Part shown: positions 19,258 to 42,316 of the stretch, in pieces | Layout: each line of letters starts with the position of its first letter | Position numbering within the stretch: the first letter of the stretch is position 1 | Source of the DNA: a virus | Taxonomy: Duplodnaviria > Caudoviricetes | Direction: 5' to 3' (one strand) | IMG/VR virus record: IMGVR_UViG_3300031963_009887 | Location: 1 to 64,000 of that record | Length of the DNA stretch: 64,000 nucleotides | Program-made: the position numbers and the translations under genes | The notes under the pieces: generated by a model | Told to the model about the DNA's origin: nothing | The model's input: only the letters and a program-made list of their open reading frames with translations | Database searches by the model: none

Positions 19258-19280
19258 AAATTAAATAATAATAAATCAAA

Positions 19281-20794: not shown

Positions 20795-20855
20795 TTGGAA
20801 TAAAAATACGAAAGAAATGATTAAAGGAAAACATTTTGTGGTATTTATTATTACA

Positions 20856-23003
20856 ATGCCAAGACCAATTGCCTATAAAACGGGAACAATCCAACCTCCA
20901 AATACTGCAAAACAATCCAATATTCTTGTGGGTGTTGGTCCTTCAAATTGGGGAGCTGGTGCTGCAAATGCGACTTTTTATAATAGTGTTGATTCATCTT
21001 ATCAATATGTTATTATAAAAAATTCTAATCCACCGGCAATGTGGGCTACTGGTGATTTTACTGATACAAGTTTATTAAGAATAATTAATGGTTTACCTGA
21101 AAGAATTAATCAGACCGTTTTTACAAACGTAAATACTGCGATAAATTGGTTATTTGAAACAGGAGTTTATTCCATGTTGAAAAGTGAACAACTTTATGGT
21201 GAACCTATTACTAACGGGTTAGTAATATCTGTAAATGGACCATCAACAGGTAAAAATATATTTAATGCGACAACTTATCCTGATTTTATAGGATGGTATG
21301 ATTATGGTGGATACGCAAGTTATAATATAACTAATGACCCTCCTTATCCAGGAAGTACTACAAAAACAGCAATCAGAGGAGGATTCGGATGTTATTCAGG
21401 TATTGCTATGGAAGTTGGAAAACAATATGTGTTTTCCTTTTGGGTAAAAGCAATTGGGGATATTCCTAGTGATGCGCTTTTAACATGGAATAATCAATTT
21501 GGTAGCGGAGAAACTAATTCTTGGGTTGGATATTTACCCTCTAGTTCAGGCATATTTCCTACAAGTTGGACAAAATTTTCTTTTACTTTTACTTTAAATG
21601 CTGTAAGAACTCAATTTTATTTTTATGTTTATTCTCCTTCAACTCCTTCTTTTAGGAGTCCAACTAGTCCAGTATTATTTACTGAATTACAATTAGAAGA
21701 AGGTTCAACAGCAACAAATTATGCAATCCCTTCTGTTTATAATTTATATAGTCTCTCAATGAAACCAACTAATGAAGGTTTATTAAATACATCTAGTTTA
21801 TCTTTAGCTAATGGTACTTATTTCAATACAAATCAGGGTGGTGTGTTTAATTTTGATGGGATTGACGATTATGCTGTTTTAACTGATGCTTCATTAAAAA
21901 ATTATACAACAATAACCGCAAATATTTGGATGTATATTAATAGTTTTACATCAACATTTGAAACATATTTCTCATATAATGCCGAGGAAGCAGGATTAAC
22001 TCAAGGTTGGGGTTTAAGACGAAGTGGTGATAACACTTTTCAATATTGGGGTGGAACGGGAAATTCGGGTATTAAACTTTATAAAAATGGTTCTCTTGTT
22101 GGAAGTAGTAATTCAACATGGAGTTATGTTTACGATTTAAATACGACAGGTTCATGGGCAATGATTACATTAGTTGCTACTGGAGTTTCTTCTTGGAATT
22201 CACATAATAGACTTACTTTGGGAACTCGAAGTGACTCTTTAAATTCGGCGACTAATTATAAAGTTGGTTTATTTAATTTATATAATAGAGAATTGTCTGT
22301 AACTGAAATTGAAAATTTATACACCGCTGGTTTACCAACATATCAAGCAAGTAATAGTATAATGATTAATCAAGGATTAACGCTTTATTTAGACGCTACA
22401 AATCCAAACTGTTATCCCGGTTCAGGGACGGCAATATATGATTTAAGTGGGTATGGAAATAATGGTACTTTATATAATGGTGTCGCGTTCAGTTCAACGT
22501 ATGGTGGAGGATTAGTTTTTGATGGTGTTGATGATTATATCATAATTCCAGGTAATGGAAGTGTAAACGCCTCAAGACCGACAGTTGAATTAGTGATGAC
22601 CACCTCAACAAACGGGGGAAATATACTTGCTCAAGGTCAATACGGTTCAAATTGGGGTTTTGGTGTTGGTGTTAAACCTACAAATATTATGGCTAGAAAT
22701 AATAGTGGAGATGCTACTATTAGTGTAAATAACAGTGGTTTAGTTCATGTGGTGGTTGTTTGGGATGGAAGTGGAAACCAGTATTATAAAAATGGTCAAT
22801 ATTTAGGTAGAACAACGGCTAACTATTCACCCAACCCTGGTGGTGATGTTACTATAGGTGGTGTTAGGGCTCAAGTACCATCTCAAAATTTACAAGAATT
22901 TGGTAATTCAACAGTTAATATTGTTAGAATATATAATAGACCATTAACTAATACTGAAGTACAACAAAACTTTAACTCAATAAAAACACAATTTGGACTA
23001 TAA
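20856..23003 (+). CDS. Virion receptor-binding-like protein 1: conserved N-terminal anchor, CBM-like domain, two LamG/ConA domains
   Basis: Start moved to ATG 20856 by alignment with the paralogs (MPRPIAYKTG). LamG signature FDGIDDY/FDGVDDY and IYNRPLT..EV.QNF. Confidence 0.8.
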   Translation: MPRPIAYKTGTIQPPNTAKQSNILVGVGPSNWGAGAANATFYNSVDSSYQYVIIKNSNPPAMWATGDFTDTSLLRIINGLPERINQTVFTNVNTAINWLFETGVYSMLKSEQLYGEPITNGLVISVNGPSTGKNIFNATTYPDFIGWYDYGGYASYNITNDPPYPGSTTKTAIRGGFGCYSGIAMEVGKQYVFSFWVKAIGDIPSDALLTWNNQFGSGETNSWVGYLPSSSGIFPTSWTKFSFTFTLNAVRTQFYFYVYSPSTPSFRSPTSPVLFTELQLEEGSTATNYAIPSVYNLYSLSMKPTNEGLLNTSSLSLANGTYFNTNQGGVFNFDGIDDYAVLTDASLKNYTTITANIWMYINSFTSTFETYFSYNAEEAGLTQGWGLRRSGDNTFQYWGGTGNSGIKLYKNGSLVGSSNSTWSYVYDLNTTGSWAMITLVATGVSSWNSHNRLTLGTRSDSLNSATNYKVGLFNLYNRELSVTEIENLYTAGLPTYQASNSIMINQGLTLYLDATNPNCYPGSGTAIYDLSGYGNNGTLYNGVAFSSTYGGGLVFDGVDDYIIIPGNGSVNASRPTVELVMTTSTNGGNILAQGQYGSNWGFGVGVKPTNIMARNNSGDATISVNNSGLVHVVVVWDGSGNQYYKNGQYLGRTTANYSPNPGGDVTIGGVRAQVPSQNLQEFGNSTVNIVRIYNRPLTNTEVQQNFNSIKTQFGL

Positions 23004-25174
23004 TGCCGAAACCAATAGCATATAAAACGGGTTCAATCCAACCACCAAACACGGCAAAACAATCCAATATTCTTGTGGGTGTTGGTCCTGCAAACTGGGG
23101 TGCGGGTGCGGCAAACGCAACTTTCTATAATAGTGTTGATTCATCTTATCAATATGTGATTATAAGAAATACTAACCCACCAGCAATGTGGGCAACAGGT
23201 GATTTCACTGATGCAAGTTTATTAACAATAATAAATGGTTTACCTGATAGAGTAGGTTCAACACCATTTACAAGTGTTAGTACTGCAATAAATTGGTTGT
23301 TGGGTTCAGGAACTTATTCTATGTTAAAAAATGAACAACCTTACGGTGGTCCTGTTGTTAGTGGATTGGCTGCGGGATTTAATGCAACACAAAAGAATTT
23401 ATTTGTTAATGGAGATTTTAACAACACAGAATCTGGATATCCTTTTTATTTTGGTTCTTATGGTGGTTCATCTACTGTAATTGATATTACAAATAATAAA
23501 CCATATGTTGGTTCTAAAACTACTAAAGCATTACAAATTACAAATGGTGGTAATGTAATGTATACAACTAATTTAATGGAAGTAGGTAAAACATACACAT
23601 TTTCGTTTTGGGGTAGAAAAACAGATGGTACTAGCGGGGATATTGGATTTGATAAAGGACCTATTTGGAATAACCAAAATGGGTTGGGAGAATTAAACAA
23701 TTTTTCATATCCTTGGAACGGAACTGTTTTACCAAGTACTACAATAGATGGTACTTGGAGAAAGTATAATTATACTTTTTTATATAACGACGCTAGAACT
23801 CAATTTTATTTTTATAATGTCGCTGGTGTGTCTATTTTTACTGAATTTCAAATTGAAGAAGGTTCAACATCAACAACTTTTTCATCATTTCCTAATTACA
23901 CTCCACAAAACACAGGTTTAATAAACACTGGAAATTGGTCTTTAATTAATGGTGCTTATTTTGGTGGAAAATATGGTGGGTCATACAATTTTGACGGTGT
24001 GGATGATAGAATTACTTATCCTATAGGATTCTCAACTTGGAATGATAAAACTTTCACTATTGAAAGTTGGTTTGAATGGGGAACAGGGGCGTCTAATAAT
24101 AATTACGGATGGTTTGAATTGGCTGGTGCTGGAGGTTCAAATTGGGGATTATCACATGTTCCTAGAACTGGTGCTTTTTATTTTTATTGGGTATCATCGG
24201 CTAATGGTGGTGGATATTATGTGTTAAATAACGCTATCCAAGATAATGTTCCTTTACATATGGCTATTACCTTTAATGGGGTTGGTGGAAATAACGCTAC
24301 AACACTCTATAATAATACTAAAATTTATATCAATGGTGTTTTGCAAACTAATGTAGAAGGTGGTGGTGCCGGTGTAAGTTCTAATAGTGTAATTAGTGTT
24401 GGTGGTCAACAATATCCTTTTAAAGGTAACATTTATACTTTTAATTATTATAATAGGGTGTTATCAAATACGGAAATTCAAAATATATATAGTGCTGGAG
24501 TACCAATTTATCTCCCATCCCAATCTATAGTTAATCAAGGATTAACAGTTTATTACGATTTTTCAAATCCAAATTGTTATGGTGGTGAAGGAACAACAAT
24601 TTATGATTTGAGTGGATATAACAATAACGGAACATTAATAAATGGGACTTCATATAGCACAACAAATGGAGGAGCATTAGTATTTGATGGTGTGGATGAT
24701 TACGTTCAATTTACTTCAACATATGCGGGTACCATTTGTTTTTGGGGTATAATGGATAACGATATTCCTGGATTGGCAGCTTTAGTGGGTGTTAATGCTA
24801 CAGGTGATGGTGCTTTAAGATGGTATGGTACTAATTTTAAATCTTTTAGAGGTGCTGTACCACCACCTTATATTGCGGGAGCTGCAGATGCTAACGATTA
24901 TCAAACTGGTTATCTTAACCAATTTATGATAAATGGTGTATCTAATTTACCATTAGATGGTAATGGGTTTTATATTATTCCAAATAATAGAACATTAGAC
25001 CAAAATTTCTATGTGGGTGCAATAGGTAATAGAAACGTAAGTACTCTTTCACATACCTTTATGGGTAGAACATATAAAGGAAAAATATTTAAAGTAATGA
25101 TTTACAACAGACAATTAACAAATGCCGAATTATTACAAAATTATAATGCTACAAAAGCACAATATGGACTTTAA
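23003..25174 (+). CDS. Virion receptor-binding-like protein 2 (LamG paralog)
   Basis: The same ~100-aa N-terminus; NLFVNGDF CBM-like start; FDGVDD twice. Confidence 0.8.
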   Translation: MPKPIAYKTGSIQPPNTAKQSNILVGVGPANWGAGAANATFYNSVDSSYQYVIIRNTNPPAMWATGDFTDASLLTIINGLPDRVGSTPFTSVSTAINWLLGSGTYSMLKNEQPYGGPVVSGLAAGFNATQKNLFVNGDFNNTESGYPFYFGSYGGSSTVIDITNNKPYVGSKTTKALQITNGGNVMYTTNLMEVGKTYTFSFWGRKTDGTSGDIGFDKGPIWNNQNGLGELNNFSYPWNGTVLPSTTIDGTWRKYNYTFLYNDARTQFYFYNVAGVSIFTEFQIEEGSTSTTFSSFPNYTPQNTGLINTGNWSLINGAYFGGKYGGSYNFDGVDDRITYPIGFSTWNDKTFTIESWFEWGTGASNNNYGWFELAGAGGSNWGLSHVPRTGAFYFYWVSSANGGGYYVLNNAIQDNVPLHMAITFNGVGGNNATTLYNNTKIYINGVLQTNVEGGGAGVSSNSVISVGGQQYPFKGNIYTFNYYNRVLSNTEIQNIYSAGVPIYLPSQSIVNQGLTVYYDFSNPNCYGGEGTTIYDLSGYNNNGTLINGTSYSTTNGGALVFDGVDDYVQFTSTYAGTICFWGIMDNDIPGLAALVGVNATGDGALRWYGTNFKSFRGAVPPPYIAGAADANDYQTGYLNQFMINGVSNLPLDGNGFYIIPNNRTLDQNFYVGAIGNRNVSTLSHTFMGRTYKGKIFKVMIYNRQLTNAELLQNYNATKAQYGL

Positions 25175-25185
25175 TAAATAAAATT

Positions 25186-25443
25186 ATGATACAAATATAC
25201 GATGAACGCAATTTTTTAATTTTTAACGTAAGTGAAATTAACAAAATTAATTTTGATGAGGTTTTAGAAACATCAGCAACTACATTACGAAAGTCAGTTA
25301 ATGAAACTAAGACATTAATTAAATGGGACGGTGAAGCGCCAGATTTTGTTGCAACAATGACAACAAAAGAAGGTCCTTACACCTATGATGAAATATTAAC
25401 AATTTTGGCAACACCAGAATGGACAGACCCAAACCCAATTTAA
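25186..25443 (+). CDS. Small protein associated with the LamG genes (possible assembly chaperone)
   Basis: 85-aa ORF between paralogs 2 and 3; function inferred from context. Confidence 0.6.
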   Translation: MIQIYDERNFLIFNVSEINKINFDEVLETSATTLRKSVNETKTLIKWDGEAPDFVATMTTKEGPYTYDEILTILATPEWTDPNPI

Positions 25444-25476
25444 GGTTTGTAAATCTTTAAATTGGTATTTATCATT

Positions 25477-27606
25477 ATGTCCAAACCAATAGCATATAAG
25501 ACAGGTTCAGTACAACCACCAAACACGGCAAAACAGTCCAACATCCTTGTAGGTGTTGGTCCCGCAAACTGGGGTGCAGGTGCGGCAAACGCTACTTTTT
25601 ACAATAGTGTTGATTCGTCTTATCAATATGTTATTATAAAAAATTCTAACCCACCTTTAATGTGGGGAACGGGTGATTTTACCAATACAAGTTTATTAAC
25701 AATAATTAACGGGTTACCAGATAGAGTAGGTTCAACACCATTTACAGGAACTACTACTGCAATAAATTGGTTGTTAGATTCAGGAATCTATTCCATGTTA
25801 AAAAATGAATTACCTTACGGTGGGTCAATAACTAGTGGGTTAGTATTAGATTTTTGTCCTAAGGTAAACAATTATTTTGCTAATGGTGATTTTGCTTATG
25901 GAACCACAATTGGTTGGGTGGCATATGGTGGTACTATCAGTATTGCGGATATAACAAATGACCGTCCTTATGTTGGTTCTAAATCAACGAAGGCTTTACA
26001 AAATTTAGGAGGTGGGTTTACTTGGGGTAGATATACTAATCCAGTTTATGGTCCGGGCGGATTATTAGTTACAGGACAAACTTATACTTTTTCTTTTTGG
26101 GGTAAAGTCTTATCGGGACCTAATTTTGATATTAATTGGAATAATCAAAACGGAAGTGGAGATGTAAGTAGTTGGAGCTATGGGAATTTTCCAGTTACAA
26201 CTACTTGGCAAAAATATACCCAAACTTTTACTTATAATATTTCTAAAAATTTTTTATATATTGCTGGAAGTTATGCTGCTAATACTCAATATGTACTCAC
26301 AGAATTTCAACTAGAAGATGGAACCACTGCAAACCCATTTTCATCGTTTCCTGTAACTGCGGCTGGTTTAACAATCCCAAATAATGGTTTATTAAACACG
26401 TCAAGTTTTAGTTTGATTAATGGTCCTTATTTAAATGCGATTAACAATGGTAATATTAATCTTGATGGTGTTGATGATTATATTCTTTTAACAGATTCAA
26501 CATTAAAAAATTATACAACAATAACTGCCAATATTTGGATGTATGTTAATAGTACCAATACTTGGGAAACATATTTTTCATATAATGCTGAAGAGGCTGG
26601 ATTATTACAAGGATGGGGAGTAAGAAGACAAAGTAATCTTAATAATTACCAATACTGGGGAGGAACAGGAAATTCAGGAATTAAATTATATAAAAATGGA
26701 ACTCTTATTTCATCTGGTAATACTTCTAGTGTAGTATCAGATGGAACAAATACAACAGGTTCTTGGAATATGATTACTTTAGTAGCTAATGGTGTTTCGT
26801 CTTGGAATACACATAATAGACTAACTATGGGAACTAGAAGTGATAGTGTCAATTCTGCTACCAATATGAACGTTGGCTCTTTTAATTTATATAATAGAGA
26901 ATTATCCGCAACCGATATTGTTAATTTATATAATTCACAACTTCCAATATATCAACCAACCGCATTTCCTGTAAATTCAGGGTTAGTTCTTTTTTTAGAT
27001 GCTTCAGACCCAAATTCATATACATCAGGTTCAAGTACTTGGAATGATATAAGTGGATATGGAAGTAATATGACTTTATTAAATTCACCAACATTTAATT
27101 CGGCTAATGGTGGTTTCATTAGTTTTGATAATGTTGATGATTTTGGTTTTATAAATGTAACAAGTGGTAATTTATTGGGAAATGTAAATATATCTATGGA
27201 ATTATGGATAAAAAATCCTGTTGGAAATTTTGTAATGAATGGGATTTATGGTAGTTATTTTTCTAGTGGGTTTTATTCGGGTGGTTTATTAAAAAATAGT
27301 GGAGGTTCGGCAGGACCTTCTTGGTCATCAACAGCATCATGGCAACAATGGGTTGCGGTATGGGACCAAACATTAAATCAAACTAGATTATACGTAAATG
27401 GTGTACTAACAGGTACTTCATCCAACACTTCTTGGAGTCCAAGCTCAGGAGGTAAATTAGTATTTGGTGGTGGTGCTCAGGGTAACGGAACTTATAGTAA
27501 AGAAGGTTCTATGGATATTGCAATCTACAGATTTTATAATAAAATACTAACCCAATCTGAAATTATTCAAAATTACAACGCAAACAAAACACAATTTGGG
27601 TTATAG
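25477..27606 (+). CDS. Virion receptor-binding-like protein 3 (LamG paralog)
   Basis: Start moved to ATG 25477 (MSKPIAYKTG); same architecture as paralogs 1 and 2. Confidence 0.8.
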   Translation: MSKPIAYKTGSVQPPNTAKQSNILVGVGPANWGAGAANATFYNSVDSSYQYVIIKNSNPPLMWGTGDFTNTSLLTIINGLPDRVGSTPFTGTTTAINWLLDSGIYSMLKNELPYGGSITSGLVLDFCPKVNNYFANGDFAYGTTIGWVAYGGTISIADITNDRPYVGSKSTKALQNLGGGFTWGRYTNPVYGPGGLLVTGQTYTFSFWGKVLSGPNFDINWNNQNGSGDVSSWSYGNFPVTTTWQKYTQTFTYNISKNFLYIAGSYAANTQYVLTEFQLEDGTTANPFSSFPVTAAGLTIPNNGLLNTSSFSLINGPYLNAINNGNINLDGVDDYILLTDSTLKNYTTITANIWMYVNSTNTWETYFSYNAEEAGLLQGWGVRRQSNLNNYQYWGGTGNSGIKLYKNGTLISSGNTSSVVSDGTNTTGSWNMITLVANGVSSWNTHNRLTMGTRSDSVNSATNMNVGSFNLYNRELSATDIVNLYNSQLPIYQPTAFPVNSGLVLFLDASDPNSYTSGSSTWNDISGYGSNMTLLNSPTFNSANGGFISFDNVDDFGFINVTSGNLLGNVNISMELWIKNPVGNFVMNGIYGSYFSSGFYSGGLLKNSGGSAGPSWSSTASWQQWVAVWDQTLNQTRLYVNGVLTGTSSNTSWSPSSGGKLVFGGGAQGNGTYSKEGSMDIAIYRFYNKILTQSEIIQNYNANKTQFGL

Positions 27607-27608
27607 TA

Positions 27609-27776
27609 TTAATTCTTTTTGTTAATCTGATGAAAGGTTTTCATCAATTTTAAACTGTCCTTGTAGTTCTTTTCAAGACGGTCCAATTCTTTTTCGTCAA
27701 CAACAGACTCCAACGCTTTATTATAAGCGTCCTCAGATTCTCTTATTAATTTTTCTATTGTTTTAAGTAATTTCAT
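27609..27776 (-). CDS. 55-aa protein missed by the ORF track (MKLLKTIEKLIRESEDAY...)
   Basis: Translated by hand; TATTTATA 4 nt upstream; the N-terminus matches the MKL...[IL]-x-E pattern seen in other genes. Confidence 0.65.
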   Translation of the reverse strand: MKLLKTIEKLIRESEDAYNKALESVVDEKELDRLEKNYKDSLKLMKTFHQINKKN

Positions 27777-27876
27777 TTACTATAAATATTTCCATATAAA
27801 TATAAAGTACAAACAATTCTTTATATTCACTTCATTAGGTAAAAACTTATATTCTTTTATAAATGGAATTTTTATA

Positions 27877-29142
27877 ATGAAACCTAAGAAAAACTCAAAA
27901 ATTTTTGTACAGATTGCGTCCTATCGTGACCCACAACTGATTCCAACAATTAAGAACATGTTGGAAAACGCTAAGAACCCCCAAAACATTACCATTGGTA
28001 TTGCAAGACAATTTCATCCTGATGATAAATTTGATGATTTATCTGAATATGAAAATGACGATAGATTCAGAATCTTAAATATTCCTTATCAAGAAGCTGA
28101 AGGTGTTTGTTGGGCGAGACACTTAGTTCAACAACTATATAAAGACGAAGCATATACACTTCAAATTGACTCACATATGAGGTTTGCACCTGATTGGGAT
28201 GAAGAAATGATTAACATGGTTAAACAACTTCAAAAGAAAGGACATAAGAAACCATTACTTACAGGATATGTGTCATCATTTGACCCTGACAATGACCCAG
28301 CGGGTAGGGTACAAGAGCCTTGGAGAATGGCGTTTGATAGATTTATTCCTGAAGGTGCGGTATTCTTCTTACCTGAGACAATTCCAAATTGGAGAGAGAT
28401 GACAGAACCAGTACCAGCAAGATTCTATTCCGCACACTACTGTTTTACCTTAGGACAATTCTCAAAAGAAGTTCAACACAATCCGCACTACTATTTTCAC
28501 GGTGAAGAAATTTCAATTTCAGCAAGAGCTTACACTTGTGGATATGACTTATTCCACCCACATAAAGTATTGATTTGGCACGAATATACTCGTAAGGGTA
28601 GAACCAAACAATGGGATGATGATAAAGAATGGGTTAGAAGAAATAATCAAGCGCACTTATTGAATAGAAAACTATTTGGTATGGACGGAGAAGTTCAAGA
28701 AGGACATGATGGTCCTTATGGATTCGGAACTACAAGAACATTAAGAGATTACGAAAAATATGCGGGTCTTATTTTTCAAAAAAGAGCTGTACAACAATAC
28801 ACCTTAGATAAAAAGTATCCACCAAATCCGCAAGAATTTGAAAGTGAAGAAAAATGGTTAGAAAGTTTTGCTAGCATATTTAAACATTGTATTGATGTTA
28901 ATTATGGCTCGGTACCTGAAAAAGATTATGATTTTTGGGTTGTTGCGTTCCACAATGAACAGGATGAAACAATATATAGAAAAGACGCTGATAAATCTGA
29001 AATTAACCAAATGATGAATGACCCTGATGGATATTGTAAAGTATGGAGAGAGTTCCAAACGGCACATAAACCAAAGTATTGGGTTGTTTGGCCTCACTCA
29101 GAATCTAAAGGATGGTGTGAAAGAATAACTGGCAATTTATAG
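27877..29142 (+). CDS. GT60-family polypeptide/hydroxyproline alpha-GlcNAc transferase-like (Dictyostelium Gnt1/Gnt2-like)
   Basis: IFVQIASYRD, GVCWAR, LQIDSHMRF (DSH motif), FHGEE and ARAYTCGYDLFHP...WHEY. Confidence 0.85.
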   Translation: MKPKKNSKIFVQIASYRDPQLIPTIKNMLENAKNPQNITIGIARQFHPDDKFDDLSEYENDDRFRILNIPYQEAEGVCWARHLVQQLYKDEAYTLQIDSHMRFAPDWDEEMINMVKQLQKKGHKKPLLTGYVSSFDPDNDPAGRVQEPWRMAFDRFIPEGAVFFLPETIPNWREMTEPVPARFYSAHYCFTLGQFSKEVQHNPHYYFHGEEISISARAYTCGYDLFHPHKVLIWHEYTRKGRTKQWDDDKEWVRRNNQAHLLNRKLFGMDGEVQEGHDGPYGFGTTRTLRDYEKYAGLIFQKRAVQQYTLDKKYPPNPQEFESEEKWLESFASIFKHCIDVNYGSVPEKDYDFWVVAFHNEQDETIYRKDADKSEINQMMNDPDGYCKVWREFQTAHKPKYWVVWPHSESKGWCERITGNL

Positions 29143-29158
29143 TTTATACCCTATAATA

Positions 29159-29998
29159 ATGATAACATTTTATGATGAATATGTTCAAGGATTGTCGGGT
29201 GGGCATTTTTCAACGTTCAGAAAAAATTTAGGTAATAAATTATTTATTTACGGTGTAAGTAGAGTTGCGTCAGATATATTAGATTATGATTTAATTTTAC
29301 CACCAAACCCATTAATAAGACGGGAGTTAACTAGTGTGGGTAATTATGTAAATGAAAAATTTCCCTTTGGAAGTTTGACGGGTAGAAAAAGAGTTGAGTC
29401 TCCAACAAAAACTATGGACGACATTGACCTTTTTAATTTTAACGGATTGGAAGGTTTTATTAATCAATTTAATAATCATCATATTGAAGTGGTAGGATAC
29501 TTTACAAAATATGATTATATCAAACCATATAAAGAAAAAATTCGTTCTTATTATTCAAGTTTGGTTAGACCAAAACGTAATAATAATGATATGGTCATCA
29601 TGCTAAGAAACAGTAGAGACGATGCTAGATTTGTATTACCGGATGACTATTATATTAATATTTTAGAAAATGAGTCATTTGATAAGTTATATGTTGGTTA
29701 CGACCATTTATATAAACATCAAAGTCTAATCAGTAAAATTGAAAAATATAATCCGATTTATTTGGAGTCAGGAATCTTGGATATTTTCTCAGAGATAACA
29801 TCGTTCAATAAAATTGTTGCTTGTCAAGGAACATTTTCATTTTGGGCAAGTTTTTTATCAAACGCAGATAAAATATATTGGCCAACAACTAACGATGGTC
29901 CCAATTCAAACAATGAAGTTTTTGCACAATTTGTTAACTTAAAGGTTGATGACGAAGACCGATACACTTTTGTACCAATTAATAACATATATACATGA
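29159..29998 (+). CDS. GT11-like (alpha-1,2-fucosyltransferase-type) glycosyltransferase
   Basis: LGNKLFIY, GYF, LPDDYY and QGTFSFWASFL (cf. the NSTFSWWAA motif). Confidence 0.65.
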   Translation: MITFYDEYVQGLSGGHFSTFRKNLGNKLFIYGVSRVASDILDYDLILPPNPLIRRELTSVGNYVNEKFPFGSLTGRKRVESPTKTMDDIDLFNFNGLEGFINQFNNHHIEVVGYFTKYDYIKPYKEKIRSYYSSLVRPKRNNNDMVIMLRNSRDDARFVLPDDYYINILENESFDKLYVGYDHLYKHQSLISKIEKYNPIYLESGILDIFSEITSFNKIVACQGTFSFWASFLSNADKIYWPTTNDGPNSNNEVFAQFVNLKVDDEDRYTFVPINNIYT

Positions 29999-30990
29999 AA
30001 AAAACTATAAAATTATCTAGAGCTAGTTTCCCTGGTGTTGGAAATTTTTCTTGGATGAATTACTTTGTAAACATCCTAAATAAAAAATATAATGTTGTGA
30101 TTGACGCAATCAATCCGGACATTGTAATCTATACTAATCAATTTTATCGTGAAAACGAATTAGATTATTACACAAATGAAACTGTAAGAGGTATTCATCA
30201 ATATGATGATTCTATTAAAAAAGTTTTTATTAGTGGTGAAGCTAGACCCGATTTTAACGCACATTTAAATAAAGGTGATAACTATTATGTTTTAGGTTAT
30301 GAACATATTGATAATGAGAGATATCTTAGGTTCCCAACTTTAGTATTAGATGCTTTTGTTTTACATAATGAAGGAGGAATGTTTGACACACCATTTGATT
30401 GGTTAACCAAAAAAAGGGACGGGTCGAAGATACTCGAAAGTAAAAAACATTTTTGTAGTATAGTCCAATCAAGCAACAATCCCGACAGAGAAAAATTGTT
30501 TGATTTGATTCAAGAGAAACATTTCATTAAATCATCAGGACCTTGGCGTAGAACAGTTCCCGACGAAGAAACACTAAACCCTTATCAATACCACAATTAT
30601 TCAAACAAAGAATACATGGGTAGAATTGATGGACTAACATATAGGGATAAGATTAATTTTTTCTCTGACACAGTGTTTAACATTGCCTACCAATTTACAA
30701 ATACTGATAATTTAACTCAAGAAAAAATTATACACGCTTACGCAGCAAATACAATACCATTATTTTATGGTAATCAATATATTGAGGAAGAAGGATTTAA
30801 TCCTAAATCTTTTATTAACTGTCACAAATTTGAAAGTTTTGAAAGTTTAGTTGAATTTTTAGATGAGTTATATAAAGATAATGATAGATTAAAATCATAT
30901 TTTGAAGAACCAATTTTTGTTGATAATAAATTACCAATTTATTTTAATGAGGATTACATTTTGAATTTTTTTAGTAAAATTATTGAGTAG
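29995..30990 (+). CDS. GT10-like (alpha-1,3-fucosyltransferase-type) glycosyltransferase
   Basis: GEARPDF, KKHFCSIVQSSNN..R, KINF...FNIAY...TQEKII.AYAANTIPLFYG (cf. the alpha-1,3-FucT motif). Confidence 0.8.
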   Translation: MKKTIKLSRASFPGVGNFSWMNYFVNILNKKYNVVIDAINPDIVIYTNQFYRENELDYYTNETVRGIHQYDDSIKKVFISGEARPDFNAHLNKGDNYYVLGYEHIDNERYLRFPTLVLDAFVLHNEGGMFDTPFDWLTKKRDGSKILESKKHFCSIVQSSNNPDREKLFDLIQEKHFIKSSGPWRRTVPDEETLNPYQYHNYSNKEYMGRIDGLTYRDKINFFSDTVFNIAYQFTNTDNLTQEKIIHAYAANTIPLFYGNQYIEEEGFNPKSFINCHKFESFESLVEFLDELYKDNDRLKSYFEEPIFVDNKLPIYFNEDYILNFFSKIIE

Positions 30991-31669
30991 TATGAAACAT
31001 ATATCATTTAGTCTTTTTGGTTATGACCCAAAATATTATGTTGGGGCTGAAAAAAATATAATAATTAATAAGGAATTGTTACCTGATTGGACAACAGTCA
31101 TTTATTATCACCCCGAAAATATATTACAAGGTTATGTTGAAAAACTTACTGAAATGGGCGCAGTAATGATTGATGTTTCCAAAATTAAATTAGGTGAAAA
31201 AGAATCAATACATTTTCCATATTTTTGGAGATTTTTTTCTTTCTTACAAGATATTCCAACAATTGTGAGAGATTTAGATAGTAGAATATCTGAAAGAGAA
31301 GTTCAATATATTAGAATATGGGAACAAAGTAATGAAGATTATTTTATTATCAGAGACCACCCGTGGCACGCACCCGTGCCAAGTGGTTTGTTTGGAATCA
31401 AAAGAAAAATAAATAAGTTTGAAGAACACTTTATACAATTCGTTAATACGTCTGACTTAAGGTGGGGAACAGACCAAGAAATTTTACATCAGTATATCAA
31501 TAATATTGATAAATCCAATGTTTTATATTTTGGTTTTGATAAACAAGACACATACATACCAAGAGACAATCAAGATTTTTTTATTGGTATACAATTAGAC
31601 GAAAACGATGAACCAACAAAACCGAGTGGTGTTAAGTGTTTGGAATTTTTAAAAGAATTAAATTTATAA
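30983..31669 (+). CDS. Uncharacterised GT-A-like protein
   Basis: ISFSLFG...KY, FWRF, IVRDLDSR, RDHPWH and DQEIL; this pattern recurs in glycosylation loci. Confidence 0.55.
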   Translation: MSSMKHISFSLFGYDPKYYVGAEKNIIINKELLPDWTTVIYYHPENILQGYVEKLTEMGAVMIDVSKIKLGEKESIHFPYFWRFFSFLQDIPTIVRDLDSRISEREVQYIRIWEQSNEDYFIIRDHPWHAPVPSGLFGIKRKINKFEEHFIQFVNTSDLRWGTDQEILHQYINNIDKSNVLYFGFDKQDTYIPRDNQDFFIGIQLDENDEPTKPSGVKCLEFLKELNL

Positions 31670-31672
31670 ATA

Positions 31673-32410
31673 ATGAAATACTGTTTTACAACTTTAGCGG
31701 TAAATGAACCGTACGAATCAATTACACCATCTTTCTATAAAGAACTAAGGGATAATACAACCGAATGTGAATTTTTTATTACAACCACAAATCATGAACT
31801 TCAAAATCAGGGTAATAGAATACACACCAAAGTAATAAACCCACCATTATATGATTCTCGAGGTGGGTTCAATTTTAATTTAAATTTAAAAGTATTGTCT
31901 TTAAAACATATTTTGGAACACCAAAAAATAACAGGAGATAAACCTGAGTATATTATTTTTACTGATGGTGATTGGAGAATGCATAATGGATTTTCAGAAG
32001 AAAAAATATTGAACATGTTGTCTTACATGGAAAAAGATGGTTTAGATTTTTTATTCGAAAGACCCGCTCCAATCGGACCACATAAAAAAGAACCCGAACA
32101 AAGTTTTTTCAAAGATAAACTGTACGATTATGATGTTTTTGAACACAACAAATGGGATGAAGCACACGTTGTTAATGAACAATTCTTGGTATTCAAAAAT
32201 AATTGGAAGTTTAAATTTTTTGTTCAAAGATGGGAACAATTTTTATGGTATAGTATAGCTAATGATATCAGAAATTATCCAGATGGTTTTGAAATAGGAA
32301 TTTCAGCTTTAGAAGCTGAAATGAAATATGCATATCAAGGTTATTTTAATTTGATTCAAAATTGTTTTTCTTTTTATACTAAACTCGGCGATTTTCACAC
32401 AAGATTTTAA
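31673..32410 (+). CDS. Hypothetical GT-A-like protein
   Basis: YIIFTDGDW (DXD) and operon context. Confidence 0.5.
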   Translation: MKYCFTTLAVNEPYESITPSFYKELRDNTTECEFFITTTNHELQNQGNRIHTKVINPPLYDSRGGFNFNLNLKVLSLKHILEHQKITGDKPEYIIFTDGDWRMHNGFSEEKILNMLSYMEKDGLDFLFERPAPIGPHKKEPEQSFFKDKLYDYDVFEHNKWDEAHVVNEQFLVFKNNWKFKFFVQRWEQFLWYSIANDIRNYPDGFEIGISALEAEMKYAYQGYFNLIQNCFSFYTKLGDFHTRF

Positions 32411-33336
32411 TGAAGTCAAAAATAGTTACAGGGTATTGGATGGATGTTGAGGGGTATCCATTTCAAGGAACAAGAGCAAGTAGAAAACCAAGATATTGGG
32501 GTTCGTTAATTAGTCATTGTCGCGGTATAAATTTACCAATAATTTGCTATACCCAAAAAAAAAATCAAGAAGAATTATTAAGTTTAAAAAACACACATAA
32601 TTTAGACAATCTTGAAATTAAAATTCTTGAGCTTACTGATATGAAACTTCACAAAGAAATTAGCATTGTTAGAGATAAGAATTTTGAAAACAATGGTCTT
32701 GATGGTAGAGGTACTGAAATAATGTGGGGAAAGTTTCAAGTCTTGGAACAGGAACTTGATGGTTTTGACCGAGTATATTGGGTTGATATAGGCTTACAAC
32801 ATCCTGGTATCTTTCCTTGGCGTTATTGTGTTCCATTTGGTGATAAATCATACCACAGTGGTAATGGACCTTTAGCTTGGCAACACAATGAAATGTTACA
32901 ATACGATTTTACTAAATTATTTAACACGAAAATATTTGAAAAATTGAATGATATTTGTGATAATAAAATTGTTACACTTGTTGGTTCTAACGCACAAACT
33001 AGCTATGAATTCAAACAACATGGGATTATAGATTATGATATTGTAAGAGATTTTCCAATAGGTGGATTAATTGGTGGTGACACAATACAACTCAAAAAAT
33101 ATATTGAAGAATTTTGGAAATTATCTGTTGAAGTATTAAAACACAATTTTTTATGTACTGAAGAATCTATTATGAAAGTAGTTTATGATTTATTTGATAA
33201 AAATCACTTGTTAGATTTTTTATTTGACGTTCATCAAACAAATCAACACGACGAATTTCATTTTGAAATGTGGAATAAAAGTTGGAATAAACCCAAACCT
33301 TTATACATGGTTTGGCATGATATATTACAATATTAA
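32410..33336 (+). CDS. WlaTC/HtrL(YibB)-family glycosyltransferase
   Basis: IVTGYW, YWVDIG, GGLIGG and TEESI. Confidence 0.7.
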   Translation: MKSKIVTGYWMDVEGYPFQGTRASRKPRYWGSLISHCRGINLPIICYTQKKNQEELLSLKNTHNLDNLEIKILELTDMKLHKEISIVRDKNFENNGLDGRGTEIMWGKFQVLEQELDGFDRVYWVDIGLQHPGIFPWRYCVPFGDKSYHSGNGPLAWQHNEMLQYDFTKLFNTKIFEKLNDICDNKIVTLVGSNAQTSYEFKQHGIIDYDIVRDFPIGGLIGGDTIQLKKYIEEFWKLSVEVLKHNFLCTEESIMKVVYDLFDKNHLLDFLFDVHQTNQHDEFHFEMWNKSWNKPKPLYMVWHDILQY

Positions 33337-33337
33337 T

Positions 33338-35014
33338 ATGAGTAACGTAACAGTTGTAACAGGACTTTGGAATATTAAACGTGACGAACTTGGTGAAGGA
33401 TGGTCAAGGACATTTCAACATTATTTGGATAAATTTGACCAATTATTACAAATTGAAAACAATATGATTATTTTTGGTGAACCCGAATTAGAATCATTTG
33501 TTTTTGAAAGAAGAGATAGGTCAAATACACAATTCATTACAAGAGATAAGGAATGGTTCAAACAAACTGTTCCTTATGATAAAATACAAGAGATTAGAAA
33601 TAATCCTGATTGGTTTGGACAAGCTGGTTGGTTACAAGATTCAACACAAGCAAAACTTGAGTGGTATAATCCTTTGGTAATGTCCAAAATGTTCTTGATG
33701 AATGATGCAAGAATTATGGACCAATTTAACTCACAACATCTTTATTGGATTGATGCTGGTATTACAAACACAATTCATCCAGGATATTTTACGCACGATA
33801 AAATACAAAACAAATTACCTGAGGTTTTTGATAAGTTTGGTTTTGTTGCGTTTCCATATGATGCAAACAACGAAATTCATGGATTCTCATATCCTAAAAT
33901 AAATTCATATGCTGGTGATGAAGTTAAGTTAGTATGTAGAGGTGGATTATTTGGCGGACCAAAACACGTATTTTCAGATATTAACGGAATATATTACAAC
34001 ATATTATCCGAGACACTAAGAAGTGGATACATGGGTACCGAAGAATCAATCTTTAGTATTATGTTATATAAACATAGTGATATGATTGATTATGTTGAAA
34101 TTGAAGGTAACGGGTTAATTTCAAAGTTCTGTGAAGATTTAAAAAATGATACATACGAAGTTAAAAATATATCAGGTAAAAAATCATTAAACAAAGATTT
34201 AAACATTAATAATTCAGCTCTTTATGTTATAACATTTAATAGTCCAAAACAATTTGAGACATTGATTGAGTCTATGATTCAATACGACAGAAACTTTTTG
34301 GATAGACCAAAAAAATATCTATTGGATAATTCATCAGATTTAGAAACAACTGAAAGATATATTGAGTTATGTAATGAGTTTGGTTTTGAACACATTAAGA
34401 AAGATAATTTAGGTATCTGTGGTGGTAGACAATTTATTGCCGAACATGCCGATGAAAACAATTTTGATTTTTATTTCTTCTTTGAGGATGACATGTTCTT
34501 TTTTCCAAAGAAAGGTGAAGTTTGTAAAAACGGATTCAATAGAACTGTAAATAATTTGTATATTAATTCATTAGAGATTACTAAGAAAGAAGACCTTGAT
34601 TTCTTAAAAATGAATTACACCGAGTTTTATGGTGACAACGGAACTCAATGGTCATGGTATAATGTACCACAACATATTAGAGAAGAATTTTGGCCAAACA
34701 AACCAAATTTACCTGTGATGGGTTTAGACCCAAATGCACCAAAAACCAACTTTAATAAAATATTAACATATAAAGGTATTCCATACGCTTTGGGTGATGT
34801 TTATTATTGTAATTGGCCACAAGTGGTTACAAAATATGGTAATCAAAAAATGTTTTTAGAAACAAAATGGGCCAGACCTTTTGAACAAACTTGGATGAGT
34901 TTCATATATCAGGAAACAAAAAAAGGTAATATAAACCCTGGATTGTTATTGTTAACACCAACCGAACATGACCGATTTGATTTTTATGACGGTTCTTTAA
35001 GAAAAGAATCATAA
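33338..35014 (+). CDS. HtrL-family domain fused to a GT-A domain
   Basis: Start moved to ATG 33338 (MSNVTVVTGLWNI). YWIDAG, GGLFGG, GTEESI, then GICGGRQ and FFEDDM. Confidence 0.75.
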   Translation: MSNVTVVTGLWNIKRDELGEGWSRTFQHYLDKFDQLLQIENNMIIFGEPELESFVFERRDRSNTQFITRDKEWFKQTVPYDKIQEIRNNPDWFGQAGWLQDSTQAKLEWYNPLVMSKMFLMNDARIMDQFNSQHLYWIDAGITNTIHPGYFTHDKIQNKLPEVFDKFGFVAFPYDANNEIHGFSYPKINSYAGDEVKLVCRGGLFGGPKHVFSDINGIYYNILSETLRSGYMGTEESIFSIMLYKHSDMIDYVEIEGNGLISKFCEDLKNDTYEVKNISGKKSLNKDLNINNSALYVITFNSPKQFETLIESMIQYDRNFLDRPKKYLLDNSSDLETTERYIELCNEFGFEHIKKDNLGICGGRQFIAEHADENNFDFYFFFEDDMFFFPKKGEVCKNGFNRTVNNLYINSLEITKKEDLDFLKMNYTEFYGDNGTQWSWYNVPQHIREEFWPNKPNLPVMGLDPNAPKTNFNKILTYKGIPYALGDVYYCNWPQVVTKYGNQKMFLETKWARPFEQTWMSFIYQETKKGNINPGLLLLTPTEHDRFDFYDGSLRKES

Positions 35015-35045
35015 AAAACAAACATTTGATTATTTATAATATAAT

Positions 35046-37811
35046 ATGGCACTAGTTAATAGGTATTTTTATCAATGTTGTAACCCTTTAGGGTCTGGTG
35101 CTCCAATTTATAGAACATTTGAAATTGACACTGCTGGTACGTGGACCGCAAATGTAAGCACCGTTATTTATACCGGTGACGGTAGTTGTTATTACTACAC
35201 AATTACTAATTCTTTAGACCCACCAGAACAATCATTTGCAACTGAACAATATAGTACTTGTCCGGCATGTGACGCTGCAAATCCAAATGGATGTTATTAT
35301 ACTTTTTCAGCTTGTTGTGATGGTAGTACCTTTAGTATTAGAAGGGGTGATTTCGCTTTTGAAAATACATATGGACCATTAACCGTTGGTGAAATATGGA
35401 GATTTTCTATAACCACTGCCACAACGAGCCCTACAACATTTGCTTTTGTTGGGTGTGCATCTTATATTACAGGAGTCACAGGTTCAACAATTTATGTTCA
35501 GACAGGTGAAACAACAATAAATGTTACAACACCTGGTACTTGGTCTGATTGTAATGATTGTTTAACAACATACCCTTGTTGTGTTTCAGGTACCGTTGAT
35601 AATATACTTTGTTCGTATACTGATTGTTGTGGAACATTTGTGAGCGGTGGTAGTATTAATGATGTTGTATGTTTTAACCCTAATTTACCACACAGAGGTT
35701 TAGTAAGTTCGTATACCGATGCTTGTTCACAAGTTTGCCCAACACCTACACCTACGCCTACAAATACCGTAACACCAACTAATACGGTTACACCAACGGT
35801 AACTCCTACAAAAACAGTCACACCAACAGTAACACCAACAGTAACACCAACCAATACGGTTACACCAACTAAAACCGTTACACCAACCAATACGGTTACA
35901 CCAACCAATACGGTTACACCAACTTTAACACCTTCTAATACTCCCACTCCTTCAGTAACAGCTGGTCCTACGGATTATCAATTTAGGGCATGTTGTTCAC
36001 CAAACGAAATTTTTGTTGTCGATGATTATGTTGGAACCATAAATGTTGGTCAGGTGTATTATATAACAGGAACTGGTTTTACAGGCTGTGCTGAAGTAAT
36101 ACCAATGACTGGTTTTGGTGAAAGATATGTTATTAGTGGTCTGACAGGACCATACGATAATTGTTCGGTTTGTACTGACGATTATAGTTGTTGTGGACCG
36201 GGAAGTAACTGTATTGAATATCAAATTAATAATACTCAGGAGTTCCCATCAACAGTAACATATGTAGATTGTAATGGTGATAATCAAAATTTGATTGTAC
36301 CTGAACTATCTGAATTAAATATTTGTGCATGTGAATATAGTGTGATTGTACCTGAGGGTGTATTTGTTACAGTAATTGGGGACTGTAATCAAACAACACC
36401 AACACCAACTGTTACACCAACCCAAACGCCGACACCATCTGTTACACCTGTTTACAGTCCTTGTAATACTGAATTTTGTTTATATACAAACTTTTCAGGT
36501 ACATCAATGTATGATGGAAATTATACATCGGGTGGAACTTATAATGGAAGACCATATTGGACAGGTTCCACATCAGGTACTGTTTTTTATGATGGAACAA
36601 AATGGTGTTTATCCGATACTTTAGGTGGTGATTGTATATTGGCGGGTAAAACCCCATGTTTTTCAAATTGTCCTGATTTGGATGAATTGATATGGTCAGA
36701 AGGACCGTGTCCAACACCAACCCCCACACCAACACCAAACGTCTGTATTACGGTTGATTTTCAAGCGTTGTTTGATTGTGACTATGTGCCCGAACCAACT
36801 GAGACTTGTCCGACACCAACACCGACAATTAGTTTAACACCGAGTCCAAATCCTTGTCTTTTGGTAGATGCCGATGTTACAGTTGAAGATATAACTCCAA
36901 CCCCCACACCAACTCCAACAGTCACTCCGACACCAAGTTTACAAAGAAATGTACCAGTATCAGGTTCAACAACTTATATCATAAATGATACTGAATTCGA
37001 GTGTGTGTTTGTACGTAGAATTCAAGATTGTTCTGATGATGAAATTTATTATATCAATGAGTCTATGAGAACATCAGGTGGTACTATTGTAACAACAGGT
37101 CAAACCTTCAGTGCTGATGTATCAGGAACAACTAAGTGTTATACTTATTTGGATATTGTTTATGACCAAAGTCCAACTTTAACTATCAATACTATTATTG
37201 CATCATTCAGTGGATGTTCAAGTTGTGAGAACTCTTTAATACCAACACCTACTCCAACTAGTACTGTAACACCAACGGTAACTCCAACAACAACAGTAAC
37301 ACCAACTAATACAATTACACCAACATCAACACCAACTAGTTCTGTTACTCCGACAATAACACCAACTGTAACTAAGACTTCAACACCAACATATACACCT
37401 AATGCGTCACCGTCAAAGACACCTACACAAACTAAGACACCTACATTAACTCCTACGCCAACTGTTACAGTAACTCCATCGGTTACTATGACTAAGACAC
37501 CAACTAACACACCTACTAAGACACCAACTAACACACCTACCTTAACTAAAACTCCAACTCCTACACCAACTAAGACACCTACTCAAACTCCTACAAAAAC
37601 AACTTTACCTGATAAATTTATCGTAGAAAGTTGTTCTGAACCAGTTAGAAGTATTGCGGTTAACAACTTTGGTTTATTGAATGTAAGTGTCGGCGATTTT
37701 GTGAGATTGAATGGAACTGGATACTCAGGATGTTGGGAAGTTGTCGGAACTACACTGGGTGGAACTGCGACATCAATAGTTTCGGTACATAATGATTGTA
37801 CATGTTCATAA
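35046..37811 (+). CDS. Cys-rich virion protein with mucin-like Pro-Thr stalks
   Basis: 921 aa; repeated Cys modules separated by [13 protein letters not shown] blocks; TATTTATA upstream. Confidence 0.75.
35739..35960 (+). repeat. Coding [10 protein letters not shown] repeat block 1
   Basis: [36 protein letters not shown]..., read directly. Confidence 0.9.
37242..37604 (+). repeat. Coding PT repeat block 2 (~120 aa)
   Basis: [22 protein letters not shown]...[12 protein letters not shown], read directly. Confidence 0.9.
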
Positions 37812-37823: not shown

Positions 37824-38039
37824 ATGGGAAGACAGATTACAATAAACTCAATTACAGCAACACAAGGATATAATGTTTATATCTGTGATACATCACTAAT
37901 AACCTGTGTGTATTTGGCAACGATTAATGATGCTGATTTACCATTTAGTGTCAGTATACCAGCACCTTATGATACAATGGTTGATTTTAGTGTTAAAATT
38001 GTCGATGCCAATAATTGTGAAATAATTAAAAACTTCTGA
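37824..38039 (+). CDS. Small beta-rich virion-associated protein
   Basis: 71-aa ORF whose stop overlaps the next start (TGATG). Confidence 0.6.
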   Translation: MGRQITINSITATQGYNVYICDTSLITCVYLATINDADLPFSVSIPAPYDTMVDFSVKIVDANNCEIIKNF

Positions 38040-39838: not shown

Positions 39839-39862
39839 ATCAACTAACTATATTTATATAAG

Positions 39863-42075: not shown

Positions 42076-42106
42076 TTTGTATTTATCAAAATATTCACTA
42101 TCTTTG
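42076..42106 (+). promoter_or_regulatory. Bacteroidota primary-sigma promoter (TTTG-N19-TATCTTTG)
   Basis: Exact match to the -33/-7 consensus TTTG...TAnnTTTG. Confidence 0.8.
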
Positions 42107-42110
42107 TATA

Positions 42111-42266: not shown

Positions 42267-42294
42267 AAAAGAGGACCCAAAAGGTCCTCTTTTT
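42267..42294 (+). terminator. Intrinsic terminator
   Basis: aaaagaggacc-caaaa-ggtcctctttt(t): a perfect 11-bp stem ending in a T tract. Confidence 0.85.
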
Positions 42295-42316
42295 AATTTA
42301 TGAGTATTTATAACTA

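Follow-up and report, generated by a model that had tools for sequence, protein, structure and literature searches.

In protists, mucin-type O-glycosylation is started by polypeptide alpha-N-acetylglucosamine (GlcNAc) transferases of glycosyltransferase (GT) family GT60 (PMC8724618; PMC3188802). The family is regarded as eukaryotic and has been traced to the last eukaryotic common ancestor, and its lack of a ricin-type lectin domain separates it from GT27 (PMC8724618); the DxH metal-binding motif is common to both families. Here, we describe a cassette of phage genes headed by a GT60 gene, which lies in a 64,000-nucleotide stretch of DNA from a virus of the Caudoviricetes (bases 183-64182 of the 71.7 kb IMG/VR record IMGVR_UViG_3300031963_009887); this whole stretch is referred to below as the window. 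To our knowledge, GT60 enzymes have so far been studied only in protists, in mucin-type and Skp1 glycosylation, and our literature search found no paper that links the family to phages and none that describes this cassette. An earlier note on the window had compared the cassette with the mucin-type pathway of Dictyostelium. The genes concerned are as follows:

27877..29142, + strand: GT60-family glycosyltransferase, 421 amino acids (aa), conserved 5' flank of the cassette (PF11397, phrog_24687)
29159..29998, + strand: divergent GT11-like enzyme, 279 aa, variable cargo (PF01531 of homologues; predicted structure)
29995..30990, + strand: GT10 alpha1,3/4-fucosyltransferase-like enzyme, 331 aa, family F16, variable cargo (PF00852, PDB)
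30983..31669, + strand: family F17 protein, ~225 aa, likely start at ATG 30992, variable cargo (in 4 loci)
31673..32410, + strand: family F4 protein, 245 aa, variable cargo (in 11 loci)
32410..33336, + strand: putative glycosyltransferase of HtrL fold, family F0, 308 aa (predicted structure)
33338..35014, + strand: two-domain glycosyltransferase, 558 aa, conserved 3' flank (PF09612 and structure model)
35046..37811, + strand: candidate acceptor, a 921-aa modular protein starting 31 bases after the two-domain enzyme

The initiation of mucin-type O-GlcNAc glycosylation in protists (Dictyostelium Gnt2/pp-alphaGlcNAcT2, Trypanosoma cruzi OGNT) resembles the predicted phage system in the PF11397 family and its DxH motif, in the absence of a ricin-type lectin domain, in the kind of Thr-Pro repeat found in the candidate acceptor, and in extension by further transferases, including fucosyltransferases. 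The spacer of Dictyostelium PsA, for instance, is (PTVT)n. However, the phage enzyme is free of a membrane anchor and would act inside the bacterial cytoplasm, on proteins that never pass through a Golgi for secretion, its donor and acceptor are predicted here by analogy, and its two-domain HtrL/GT2-like partner and mosaic island have no described protist counterpart. Because the compartment and the anchor differ, the phage GT60 is not a member of the Dictyostelium secretory pathway. The comparison drawn in the earlier note thus holds for the enzyme family and the dense Thr-Pro repeats, but as an analogy only, the membrane anchor being absent in contrast to the Golgi enzyme Gnt2. In the Skp1 system of Dictyostelium and Toxoplasma (PhyA, Gnt1 and the two-domain PgtA), a soluble cytoplasmic GT60 is likewise followed by a two-domain diglycosyltransferase and the glycan contains fucose, as is predicted on the phage side; in contrast to that system, the phage lacks a consistently linked prolyl hydroxylase and a Skp1-like acceptor, and offers many repeated sites instead of one.

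Few phages, chiefly mycobacteriophages, have been shown to form glycosylated particles; in mycobacteriophages, the glycosylation alters immune recognition. As in the window, the mycobacteriophage transferases are phage-encoded and lie beside structural genes (Freeman et al. 2023, cited in PMC12619734), the decoration of virion proteins is predicted to precede assembly, and glycans differ among related phages. The enzyme families are different, and the mycobacteriophage acceptors are the C-termini of capsid and tail-tube subunits (PMC12619734), whereas here they are probably Thr-Pro linkers in modular proteins of an adhesin-like type. Further differences are a probably Gram-negative host, a jumbo genome, and the conserved flanks around a variable island. 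The same paper, which concerns a 'moraphage', also mentions core glycosyltransferases, but that lineage could not be tied to the present one (PMC12619734).

Giant viruses (PBCV-1 with Vp54, Mimivirus with fibrils and R699/L230) also encode many transferases and sugar-modifying enzymes for their own surface, and the fold of the two-domain enzyme is R699-like; here, however, the host is a bacterium, the initiating enzyme is another one, and the likeness extends only to the generic GT-A fold. Bacterial O-antigen, capsule and lipooligosaccharide (LOS) outer-core loci share with the cassette the conserved flanks around a mosaic of rapidly exchanging GT25, GT2, GT10, GT11, HtrL, methyltransferase and carbamoyltransferase genes. 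In contrast to them, the phage block has no flippase, polymerase or initiating transferase for a lipid carrier, its initiator comes from a protein-acting family, and it is located in the structural module of a lytic phage. By analogy, the known systems that the cassette would most resemble in its working are those of mycobacteriophages, PBCV-1 and Mimivirus, in which a virus glycosylates its own surface with enzymes that it encodes.

The transferases and the Thr-Pro-linker protein

The product of 27877-29142 matched PF11397 ('GlcNAc'), the Pfam counterpart of CAZy GT60, with an E-value of 1.1e-70 and a score of 239.3 bits against a cut-off of 21, in two stretches covering profile positions 2-43 and 94-350 of 352; it also matched phrog_24687 (E 2.7e-169). 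Its DxH motif is D98-S99-H100, located within IDSHMRF at residues 97-103, and DSH belongs to the 126 of 421 positions that are invariant across 63 distinct sequences, including that of Xanthomonas phage XacN1. PF11397 is the sole Pfam domain of the protein, which has no C-terminal ricin-type lectin domain; its 120-aa C-terminal extension did not match any Pfam family, and a PDB sequence search with the protein returned no relatives. Judged by profile and motif, the gene is a member of GT60, and we propose, by analogy with the protist enzymes, that it encodes an initiating polypeptide N-acetylhexosamine (HexNAc) transferase. The N-terminus, MKPKKNSKIFVQIASYRD, does not contain a hydrophobic membrane anchor; as predicted from its sequence, the enzyme is soluble and must act in the bacterial cytoplasm. 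Relatives with 73-97% identity were found in 286 IMG/VR stretches, and those in metagenomes amounted to more than 7,300 clusters at 90% identity.

The protein encoded directly downstream of the transferase block is the chief candidate for an acceptor. It consists of Cys-rich modules (51 Cys) joined by six T-P-T-x linkers, which together comprise 290 residues (31% of the 921-aa protein), among them 119 Thr and 72 Pro. When the 71.7 kb record was scanned with a codon-degenerate TPTxTPT pattern, all 20 hits fell within 35046-37811 and the reversed-pattern control gave none, so that the only linker-encoding open reading frame (ORF) of the record is the gene directly 3' of the transferases. This adjacency is more than chance. 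Orthologues of the 921-aa protein differ in length mainly in linker 1 and keep the positions of T and P. The N-terminal module recurs in SprB-repeat proteins; the protein itself has no Pfam match and no relative among cultured phages.

The transferase that closes the block at its 3' end begins at ATG 33338, its true start, and not at TTG 33224. Residues 40-290, numbered in the long reading, matched PF09612 (HtrL_YibB) with an E-value of 2.2e-15 and 57.4 bits (cut-off 24.1). Its score with the NCBIfam YibB equivalog model was 62.9, while 264.9 is needed, and on sequence grounds the protein is not an orthologue of E. coli YibB. The structure model, with a predicted local distance difference test score (pLDDT) of 88.8, consists of two GT-A domains, an N-terminal HtrL_YibB domain and a C-terminal GT2-like domain, the latter with an invariant E383-D-D385. 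The PDB structures matched by Foldseek were tandem GT-A enzymes, namely LH3, Mimivirus R699, LARGE1, PmHS2 (heparosan synthase 2), K4CP (chondroitin polymerase) and COLGALT1, at template modelling (TM) scores that are low (~0.27) because the domain orientation differs; a search of PDB by sequence gave no matches. Because of the tandem GT-A fold and the invariant EDD, the enzyme is probably a bifunctional transferase. In loci L018, L019, L020, L022, L040, L047, L065, L066, L069, L070 and L072, its frame measures ~780-796 aa from the first ATG, i.e., it has ~230 extra N-terminal residues, which may reflect a three-domain fusion or merely an upstream in-frame ATG.

The gene immediately 5' of the two-domain enzyme, F0, encodes a protein without a Pfam match of its own in the window, whose structural look-alikes in the Atlas are HtrL_YibB and WlaTC-HtrL clusters (TM 0.64-0.70). 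Two further genes of the window's island have fucosyltransferase features. The GT10 protein matched PF00852, the C-terminal domain of GT10, with E 2.6e-9 and 37.4 bits (cut-off 23.9), and its residues 65-331 align with the Helicobacter pylori alpha1,3-fucosyltransferase 2NZW (E 1.6e-14) and with 5ZOI. The 29159-29998 product scored 16.8 bits with the GT11 profile PF01531, below the cut-off of 23.9. However, when 1.84 billion representatives were scanned with it using HMMER, 538 relatives were found, and 47 of the 60 that were aligned match PF01531 themselves (best E 2.8e-14); the Atlas clusters closest to it are of viral origin and have PF01531 on 20-43% of their members. Compared with the reference motifs of GT11 (N-terminal GxxGN..F.Y, HxRRGD and SxFSWW), it keeps G25, N26, F29 and Y31 of the first, an invariant R150, and a TFSFW motif. 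Its model has a pLDDT of 94.5, and the best PDB folds are FUT8, POFUT1, AtFUT1 and NodZ, at modest similarity (E 4e-4, TM 0.3-0.5); a PDB sequence search gave no matches. Judged by homologues and fold, it probably represents a divergent branch of GT11, a fucosyltransferase dependent on GDP-fucose. The window copies of F17 and F4 matched nothing in Pfam, NCBIfam or PHROGs, nor did their relatives (four in the case of F4).

Every sequence feature that the earlier note had named in this region is present where the note placed it. Its GT60-like gene with DSHMRF at 27877 was borne out by the profile search and the invariant DSH, its GT10-like gene by PF00852 and the alignment with 2NZW, and its repeat protein directly following the transferases by the gene at 35046-37811, in which the noted repeats and six Thr/Pro linkers are present. 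Its GT11-like gene gains support from homologues and a fucosyltransferase-like fold, but not from the profile score of the protein itself. The note had also described GT60, GT11-like, GT10-like and HtrL genes as an operon. These genes are located where it placed them, with three more between the GT10 and HtrL genes, and the operon is inferred only from how closely the genes are spaced and from the lack of any strong terminator before 42267. Operon structure stays at that level because promoter motifs are not enriched, and the scans for sigma-70 promoters and terminators gave background levels. The only strong intrinsic-terminator-like hairpin of the region is at 42267-42293, at the end of an ORF-free interval (42080-42311) that follows the 39863-42067 gene and has no Rfam match. 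Upstream of the GT60 gene, most of the gap is occupied by a small divergent ORF (27609-27776, - strand), the translation of which begins MKLLKTIEKLIRE. Two copies of the T4-type late-promoter word TATAAATA are located at 27781-27802 (+ strand), ~80-95 bases upstream of the GT60 start; across the window this word is not enriched (16 observed, 12.3 expected), and neither is TATTTAT (33 observed, 45.5 expected).

Related loci and cultured phages

We compared 80 GT60 loci, which were reduced to 62 distinct ones. The two-domain enzyme is present in 76 of the 80, whereas the GT11-like and GT10 genes of the window occur in only 2-3. The distance from GT60 to the two-domain enzyme varies from 0.6 to 9.3 kb, and in the distinct loci the interval between these flanks holds 244 genes of 64 families in mosaic order. 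Among them are GT25, GT2-like, GT34/DUF273-like and GT7-like enzymes and two GT10 families, as well as sugar O-methyltransferases, a carbamoyltransferase and a fusion of HAD with a nucleotidyltransferase. The commonest accessory gene is F0 (29/62 loci), always immediately 5' of the two-domain enzyme; the GT10 and GT11-like families of the window are found in 4 and 3 of the distinct loci, respectively, and the other GT10 family in 11. As judged from these gene contents, the conserved unit is GT60 with the two-domain HtrL/GT2-like enzyme, and the fucosyltransferases are lineage-specific cargo. Since the GT10 and GT11-like genes belong to the variable cargo, fucosylation would characterise this lineage, not the system as a whole. 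By gene content, the arrangement of conserved flanks around a variable middle is that of a glycan-diversifying locus, and the constant first step in it would most obviously fall to GT60.

Thr-Pro linkers are concentrated next to this unit in the distinct loci. One is present in 38 of the 59 ORFs immediately upstream of GT60 and in 13 of the 58 that immediately follow the two-domain enzyme, compared with 36 of 262 other nearby ORFs on the same strand and 0 of 239 island genes. These neighbours of the cassette are not homologous to the 921-aa protein of the window. They carry LamG, DUF285 and BspA-type leucine-rich repeat (LRR_5) domains, which are binding modules of the adhesin type. At the genome level, TPTxTPT was found in eight of nine GT60-positive genomes (XacN1, 51; Xoo-sp13, 51; CM1, 22; G001, 71; G002, 108; G004, 34; G005, 21; the present record, 20; G003, 0), where reversed-pattern controls gave at most one hit. 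No hit was found in 1.83 Mb of five GT60-negative jumbo phages related by their tail sheath (RsoM2USA, Atu_ph07, PA5oct, Vibrio 2.275.O and Escherichia A4).

The cassette is also present in a cultured phage, Xanthomonas phage XacN1 (AP018399.1), in which it extends from ORF334 to ORF330. ORF334 is the GT60 (~47% identity) and is followed by a carbamoyltransferase and two further ORFs, and ORF330 is the two-domain enzyme, 41% identical over its full length. GT60 was found as well in Xoo-sp13 and in Stenotrophomonas phages CM1 and RAS14. In the description of XacN1, purified virions gave at least two periodic-acid-Schiff (PAS)-positive bands, for which the authors proposed ORF328 or ORF334 as responsible (PMC5852040). 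The XacN1 cassette is located near the giant ORF325, which contains a TPTPTPT stretch. TPTxTPT linkers are carried by ORF232-237, ORF369-372 and ORF384, which encode paralogous 'hypothetical proteins' and a 2,823-aa 'glycerophosphoryl diester phosphodiesterase'; ORF369-372 directly adjoin the tail sheath and completion genes. From their sequences, ORF232-237, ORF369-372 and ORF384 are candidates for the glycoprotein bands.

Candidate acceptors and competing explanations

We consider it somewhat probable that the cassette is a phage-encoded system for the cytoplasmic O-glycosylation of the phage's own surface proteins. The comparisons above establish the enzyme families, the layout and conservation of the cassette, and its association with Thr-Pro-linker proteins and structural genes; we infer which residue accepts the glycan, which sugars are added and in what order, and that the products are located on the virion. 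Soluble GT60 would add the first sugar, a HexNAc by the protist analogy, to Thr (perhaps Ser) of the T-P-T-x linkers, with adhesin-like fibre or decoration proteins as the class of acceptor and the 921-aa protein as the chief candidate here. The two-domain HtrL/GT2-like enzyme would then add the next one or two residues, and the island enzymes would complete the glycan: in this phage the GT11-like, GT10 and HtrL-fold enzymes and two unknown proteins, with alpha1,2- and alpha1,3/4-type fucosylation from host GDP-fucose. The glycosylated proteins would finally be assembled onto the particle. From the island contents, the glycan of this phage is probably fucosylated, and relatives probably make different ones. 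A broader proposition, to which we give less than even credence, is that in a very abundant clade of jumbo phages GT60, its two-domain partner and a freely exchanging island clothe Thr-Pro-linked adhesin fibres in strain-specific glycans, in a manner similar to serotype variation, and that GT60, hitherto treated as a eukaryotic invention, has among phages of bacteria a large pool of relatives, which bears on its origin.

If the proposed system operates, virion glycosylation would be widespread among environmental jumbo phages, and a phage system would be built on a family of enzymes that is otherwise known from mucin-type and Skp1 glycosylation in protists alone. Through its built-in variable region, such a system could adjust how virions adsorb, how they stick to mucus or particles, how well they resist proteases, and how hosts and grazers recognise them. 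Its polypeptide glycosyltransferases, which would be soluble, cytoplasmic and supplied with an acceptor made of simple repeats, might also be of use in bacterial glyco-engineering. The model is testable, as the cultured Xanthomonas phages XacN1 and Xoo-sp13 have the same cassette and linkers.

Several genes of the window outside the cassette bear on its acceptor and on the alternatives:

3-2699, + strand: collagen-like fibre with Gly-Ser/Thr-Ser triplets, almost Pro-free, with a C-terminal S74 intramolecular chaperone domain
3683-4282, + strand: 2-oxoglutarate (2OG)-Fe(II) oxygenase, PF13640 (2OG-FeII_Oxy_3), E 3e-16, adjoining the collagen-like fibre gene
20817..27606, + strand: three paralogous CBM_4_9 + LamG proteins (Pfam; phrog_8510 'virion structural protein')
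from 37824, + strand: 71-aa ORF, the first co-directional downstream gene, at tight spacing
38039-39838, + strand: 599-aa SprB-repeat protein (PF13573, E 4e-11)
39863-42067, + strand: 734-aa protein without relatives in cultured phages

With tblastn, the CBM_4_9/LamG paralogues matched a 'virion structural protein' of S-PM2 and a 'structural protein' of a Flavobacterium phage. To judge by these paralogues upstream of it, the cassette sits inside a structural/adhesin module, and the genes from 37824 to 42067 probably encode further surface or structural proteins. The earlier note had placed the enzymes and their acceptor in one unit and the fucosylated product on a phage particle. The adjacency in the window and the link in relatives make an enzyme-acceptor relation plausible, but linker genes are scattered and G003 has none; the structural module and the glycoprotein bands of XacN1 fit a particle setting, but fucosylation is a trait of this lineage and does not belong to the core of the system.

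A number of observations weigh against the proposed glycosylation of Thr-Pro linkers. Glycan evidence comes from the relative XacN1, in the form of PAS-positive bands that were seen without assignment to named proteins. The association counts are phylogenetically non-independent, as all cultured GT60-positive phages belong to a single clade and gene order is passed on by descent; the co-occurrence of linkers and GT60 therefore counts as one or two events in evolution rather than fourteen. Linker genes are dispersed in the near-complete relatives, with about six places in G001, and G003 (88% complete) has GT60 and the two-domain enzyme with zero Thr-Pro linkers. The three structural paralogues just upstream of GT60 in the window are also without linkers. 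Among the island families, GT25, GT10/GT11 and HtrL, with GT9 nearby, are typical of LOS synthesis. As to fucosylation, the GT11-like protein is missing the His and Gly-Asp of HxRRGD, and the window has no gene for GDP-fucose synthesis, the nearby epimerase being HldD-like.

The case of G003 leads to an alternative that we regard as improbable yet deserving of attention, in which the cassette glycosylates other phage proteins (for example the collagen-like fibre of 3-2699, or capsid or tail subunits as in mycobacteriophages) and the Thr-Pro linkers are mere flexible spacers, frequent by coincidence among the adhesin genes of this clade. The only Ser/Thr-rich ORF of G003 encodes a collagen-like protein with GSS/GTS repeats (G003:C1:218111-219475), the window itself encodes a collagen-like fibre with an S74 domain, and among the structures that the two-domain enzyme matches best by fold are three collagen glycosyltransferases, LH3, COLGALT1 and Mimivirus R699. 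Moreover, BclA of Bacillus anthracis carries O-HexNAc-linked glycans on Thr of collagen-like repeats. However, the distribution of collagen-like genes does not follow that of GT60: G002, G004 and XacN1 lack them, and the GT60-negative Atu_ph07 has them. Thr-Pro linkers follow GT60 much more closely and are over-represented in the genes directly beside the cassette, and at a TM of ~0.27 the collagen glycosyltransferase matches reflect the generic tandem GT-A architecture. Collagen-like repeats were therefore rejected as a general acceptor and are kept as a minor rival owing to G003. The composition of the island would also suit a role in remodelling a glycoconjugate of the host envelope (LOS core or capsule), or in making a free or lipid-linked oligosaccharide, for superinfection exclusion or easier release: HtrL/YibB, GT25, GT9, GT10 and GT11 are typical of lipopolysaccharide (LPS) and LOS loci, HtrL is found in Acinetobacter outer-core loci, and the mosaic resembles O-antigen and capsule loci. 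We judge this distinctly unlikely, as the characterised GT60 members cited here act on polypeptides (PMC8724618), the cassette lies among structural/adhesin genes and not in an early or lysogeny module, the lipid acceptors of such different likely hosts (Xanthomonadaceae for XacN1, possibly Bacteroidota here) would differ, and XacN1 virions carry glycoproteins (PMC5852040).

Very little probability remains for a route of the Skp1 type, in which a 2OG-Fe(II) prolyl hydroxylase would make hydroxyproline in the linkers and GT60 would add GlcNAc there, like Gnt1 of Dictyostelium. The linkers are Pro-rich, GT60 is predicted to be soluble and cytoplasmic like Gnt1, and a 2OG-FeII_Oxy_3 gene is present at 3683-4282. 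That gene, however, lies 24 kb from the cassette, its closest solved relatives are the PKHD-type hydroxylases PiuC and Sbal_3634, and among five other GT60-positive genomes an oxygenase was found in G001 only, and not in XacN1. The route was rejected because the oxygenase is PiuC-like and not co-inherited with GT60. Hypermodification of phage DNA (glycosylated hydroxymethyl-pyrimidines) in place of proteins seems hardly credible at all, although diverse virus-encoded DNA glycosyltransferases are known (Pyle et al. 2024, cited in PMC12619734). Its sole hint in the window is that the 33338 product weakly matches phrog_842, 'beta-glucosyl-HMC-alpha-glucosyltransferase', with its second domain (E 4.5e-4); the match spans only the generic DxD region of the GT-A domain. 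The cassette is surrounded by structural genes, and G001 (98% complete) has it without any gene of the thymidylate-synthase/hydroxymethylase family; with nothing but the PHROG match in its favour, DNA glycosylation was rejected. We also know of no DNA-modifying members in GT60, GT10 or GT11.

Genomic setting

CheckV estimated the 71.7 kb record to be 24% complete, and the source would therefore be a jumbo phage with a genome of roughly 300 kb. The G+C content of the window is ~30%. Scans for tRNA and Rfam families gave no matches in the window, and a nucleotide-level search found no relatives of the region. Besides the genes listed, the window encodes SbcC-like nuclease, primase and resolvase genes. 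Its glycan genes form two large groups; the second is a cluster of ~16 kb on the - strand (4273-20794). It includes a gene for an HldD-like ADP-heptose 6-epimerase (19988-20794, E 3e-38 to 1EQ2), two GT9 heptosyltransferase-like genes, enzymes of the GT4/GT1 type (one fused to an FkbM methyltransferase), a GT2 and a carbamoyltransferase, as well as more FkbM and FtsJ-like methyltransferases, a hexapeptide acyltransferase and a short DegT-like ORF. This cluster may serve the supply or decoration of the cassette's surface proteins, or of different ones.

Close GT60 loci were also found in five metagenome-assembled genomes (MAGs), labelled Saprospiraceae (two), Bacteroidetes, Melainabacteria and Geobacter, where contigs of phages were probably placed in bacterial bins. 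The bin labels, the SprB repeats and the match to a Flavobacterium phage together weakly suggest a Bacteroidota host for the phage of the window. In the Saprospiraceae MAG contigs L094 (CALJOK010000014.1, 230 kb) and L096 (JBGCCY010000275.1), the GT60 is ~70% identical to that of the window, and the 230 kb contig probably represents the genome of a jumbo phage that was binned together with what may be its host.

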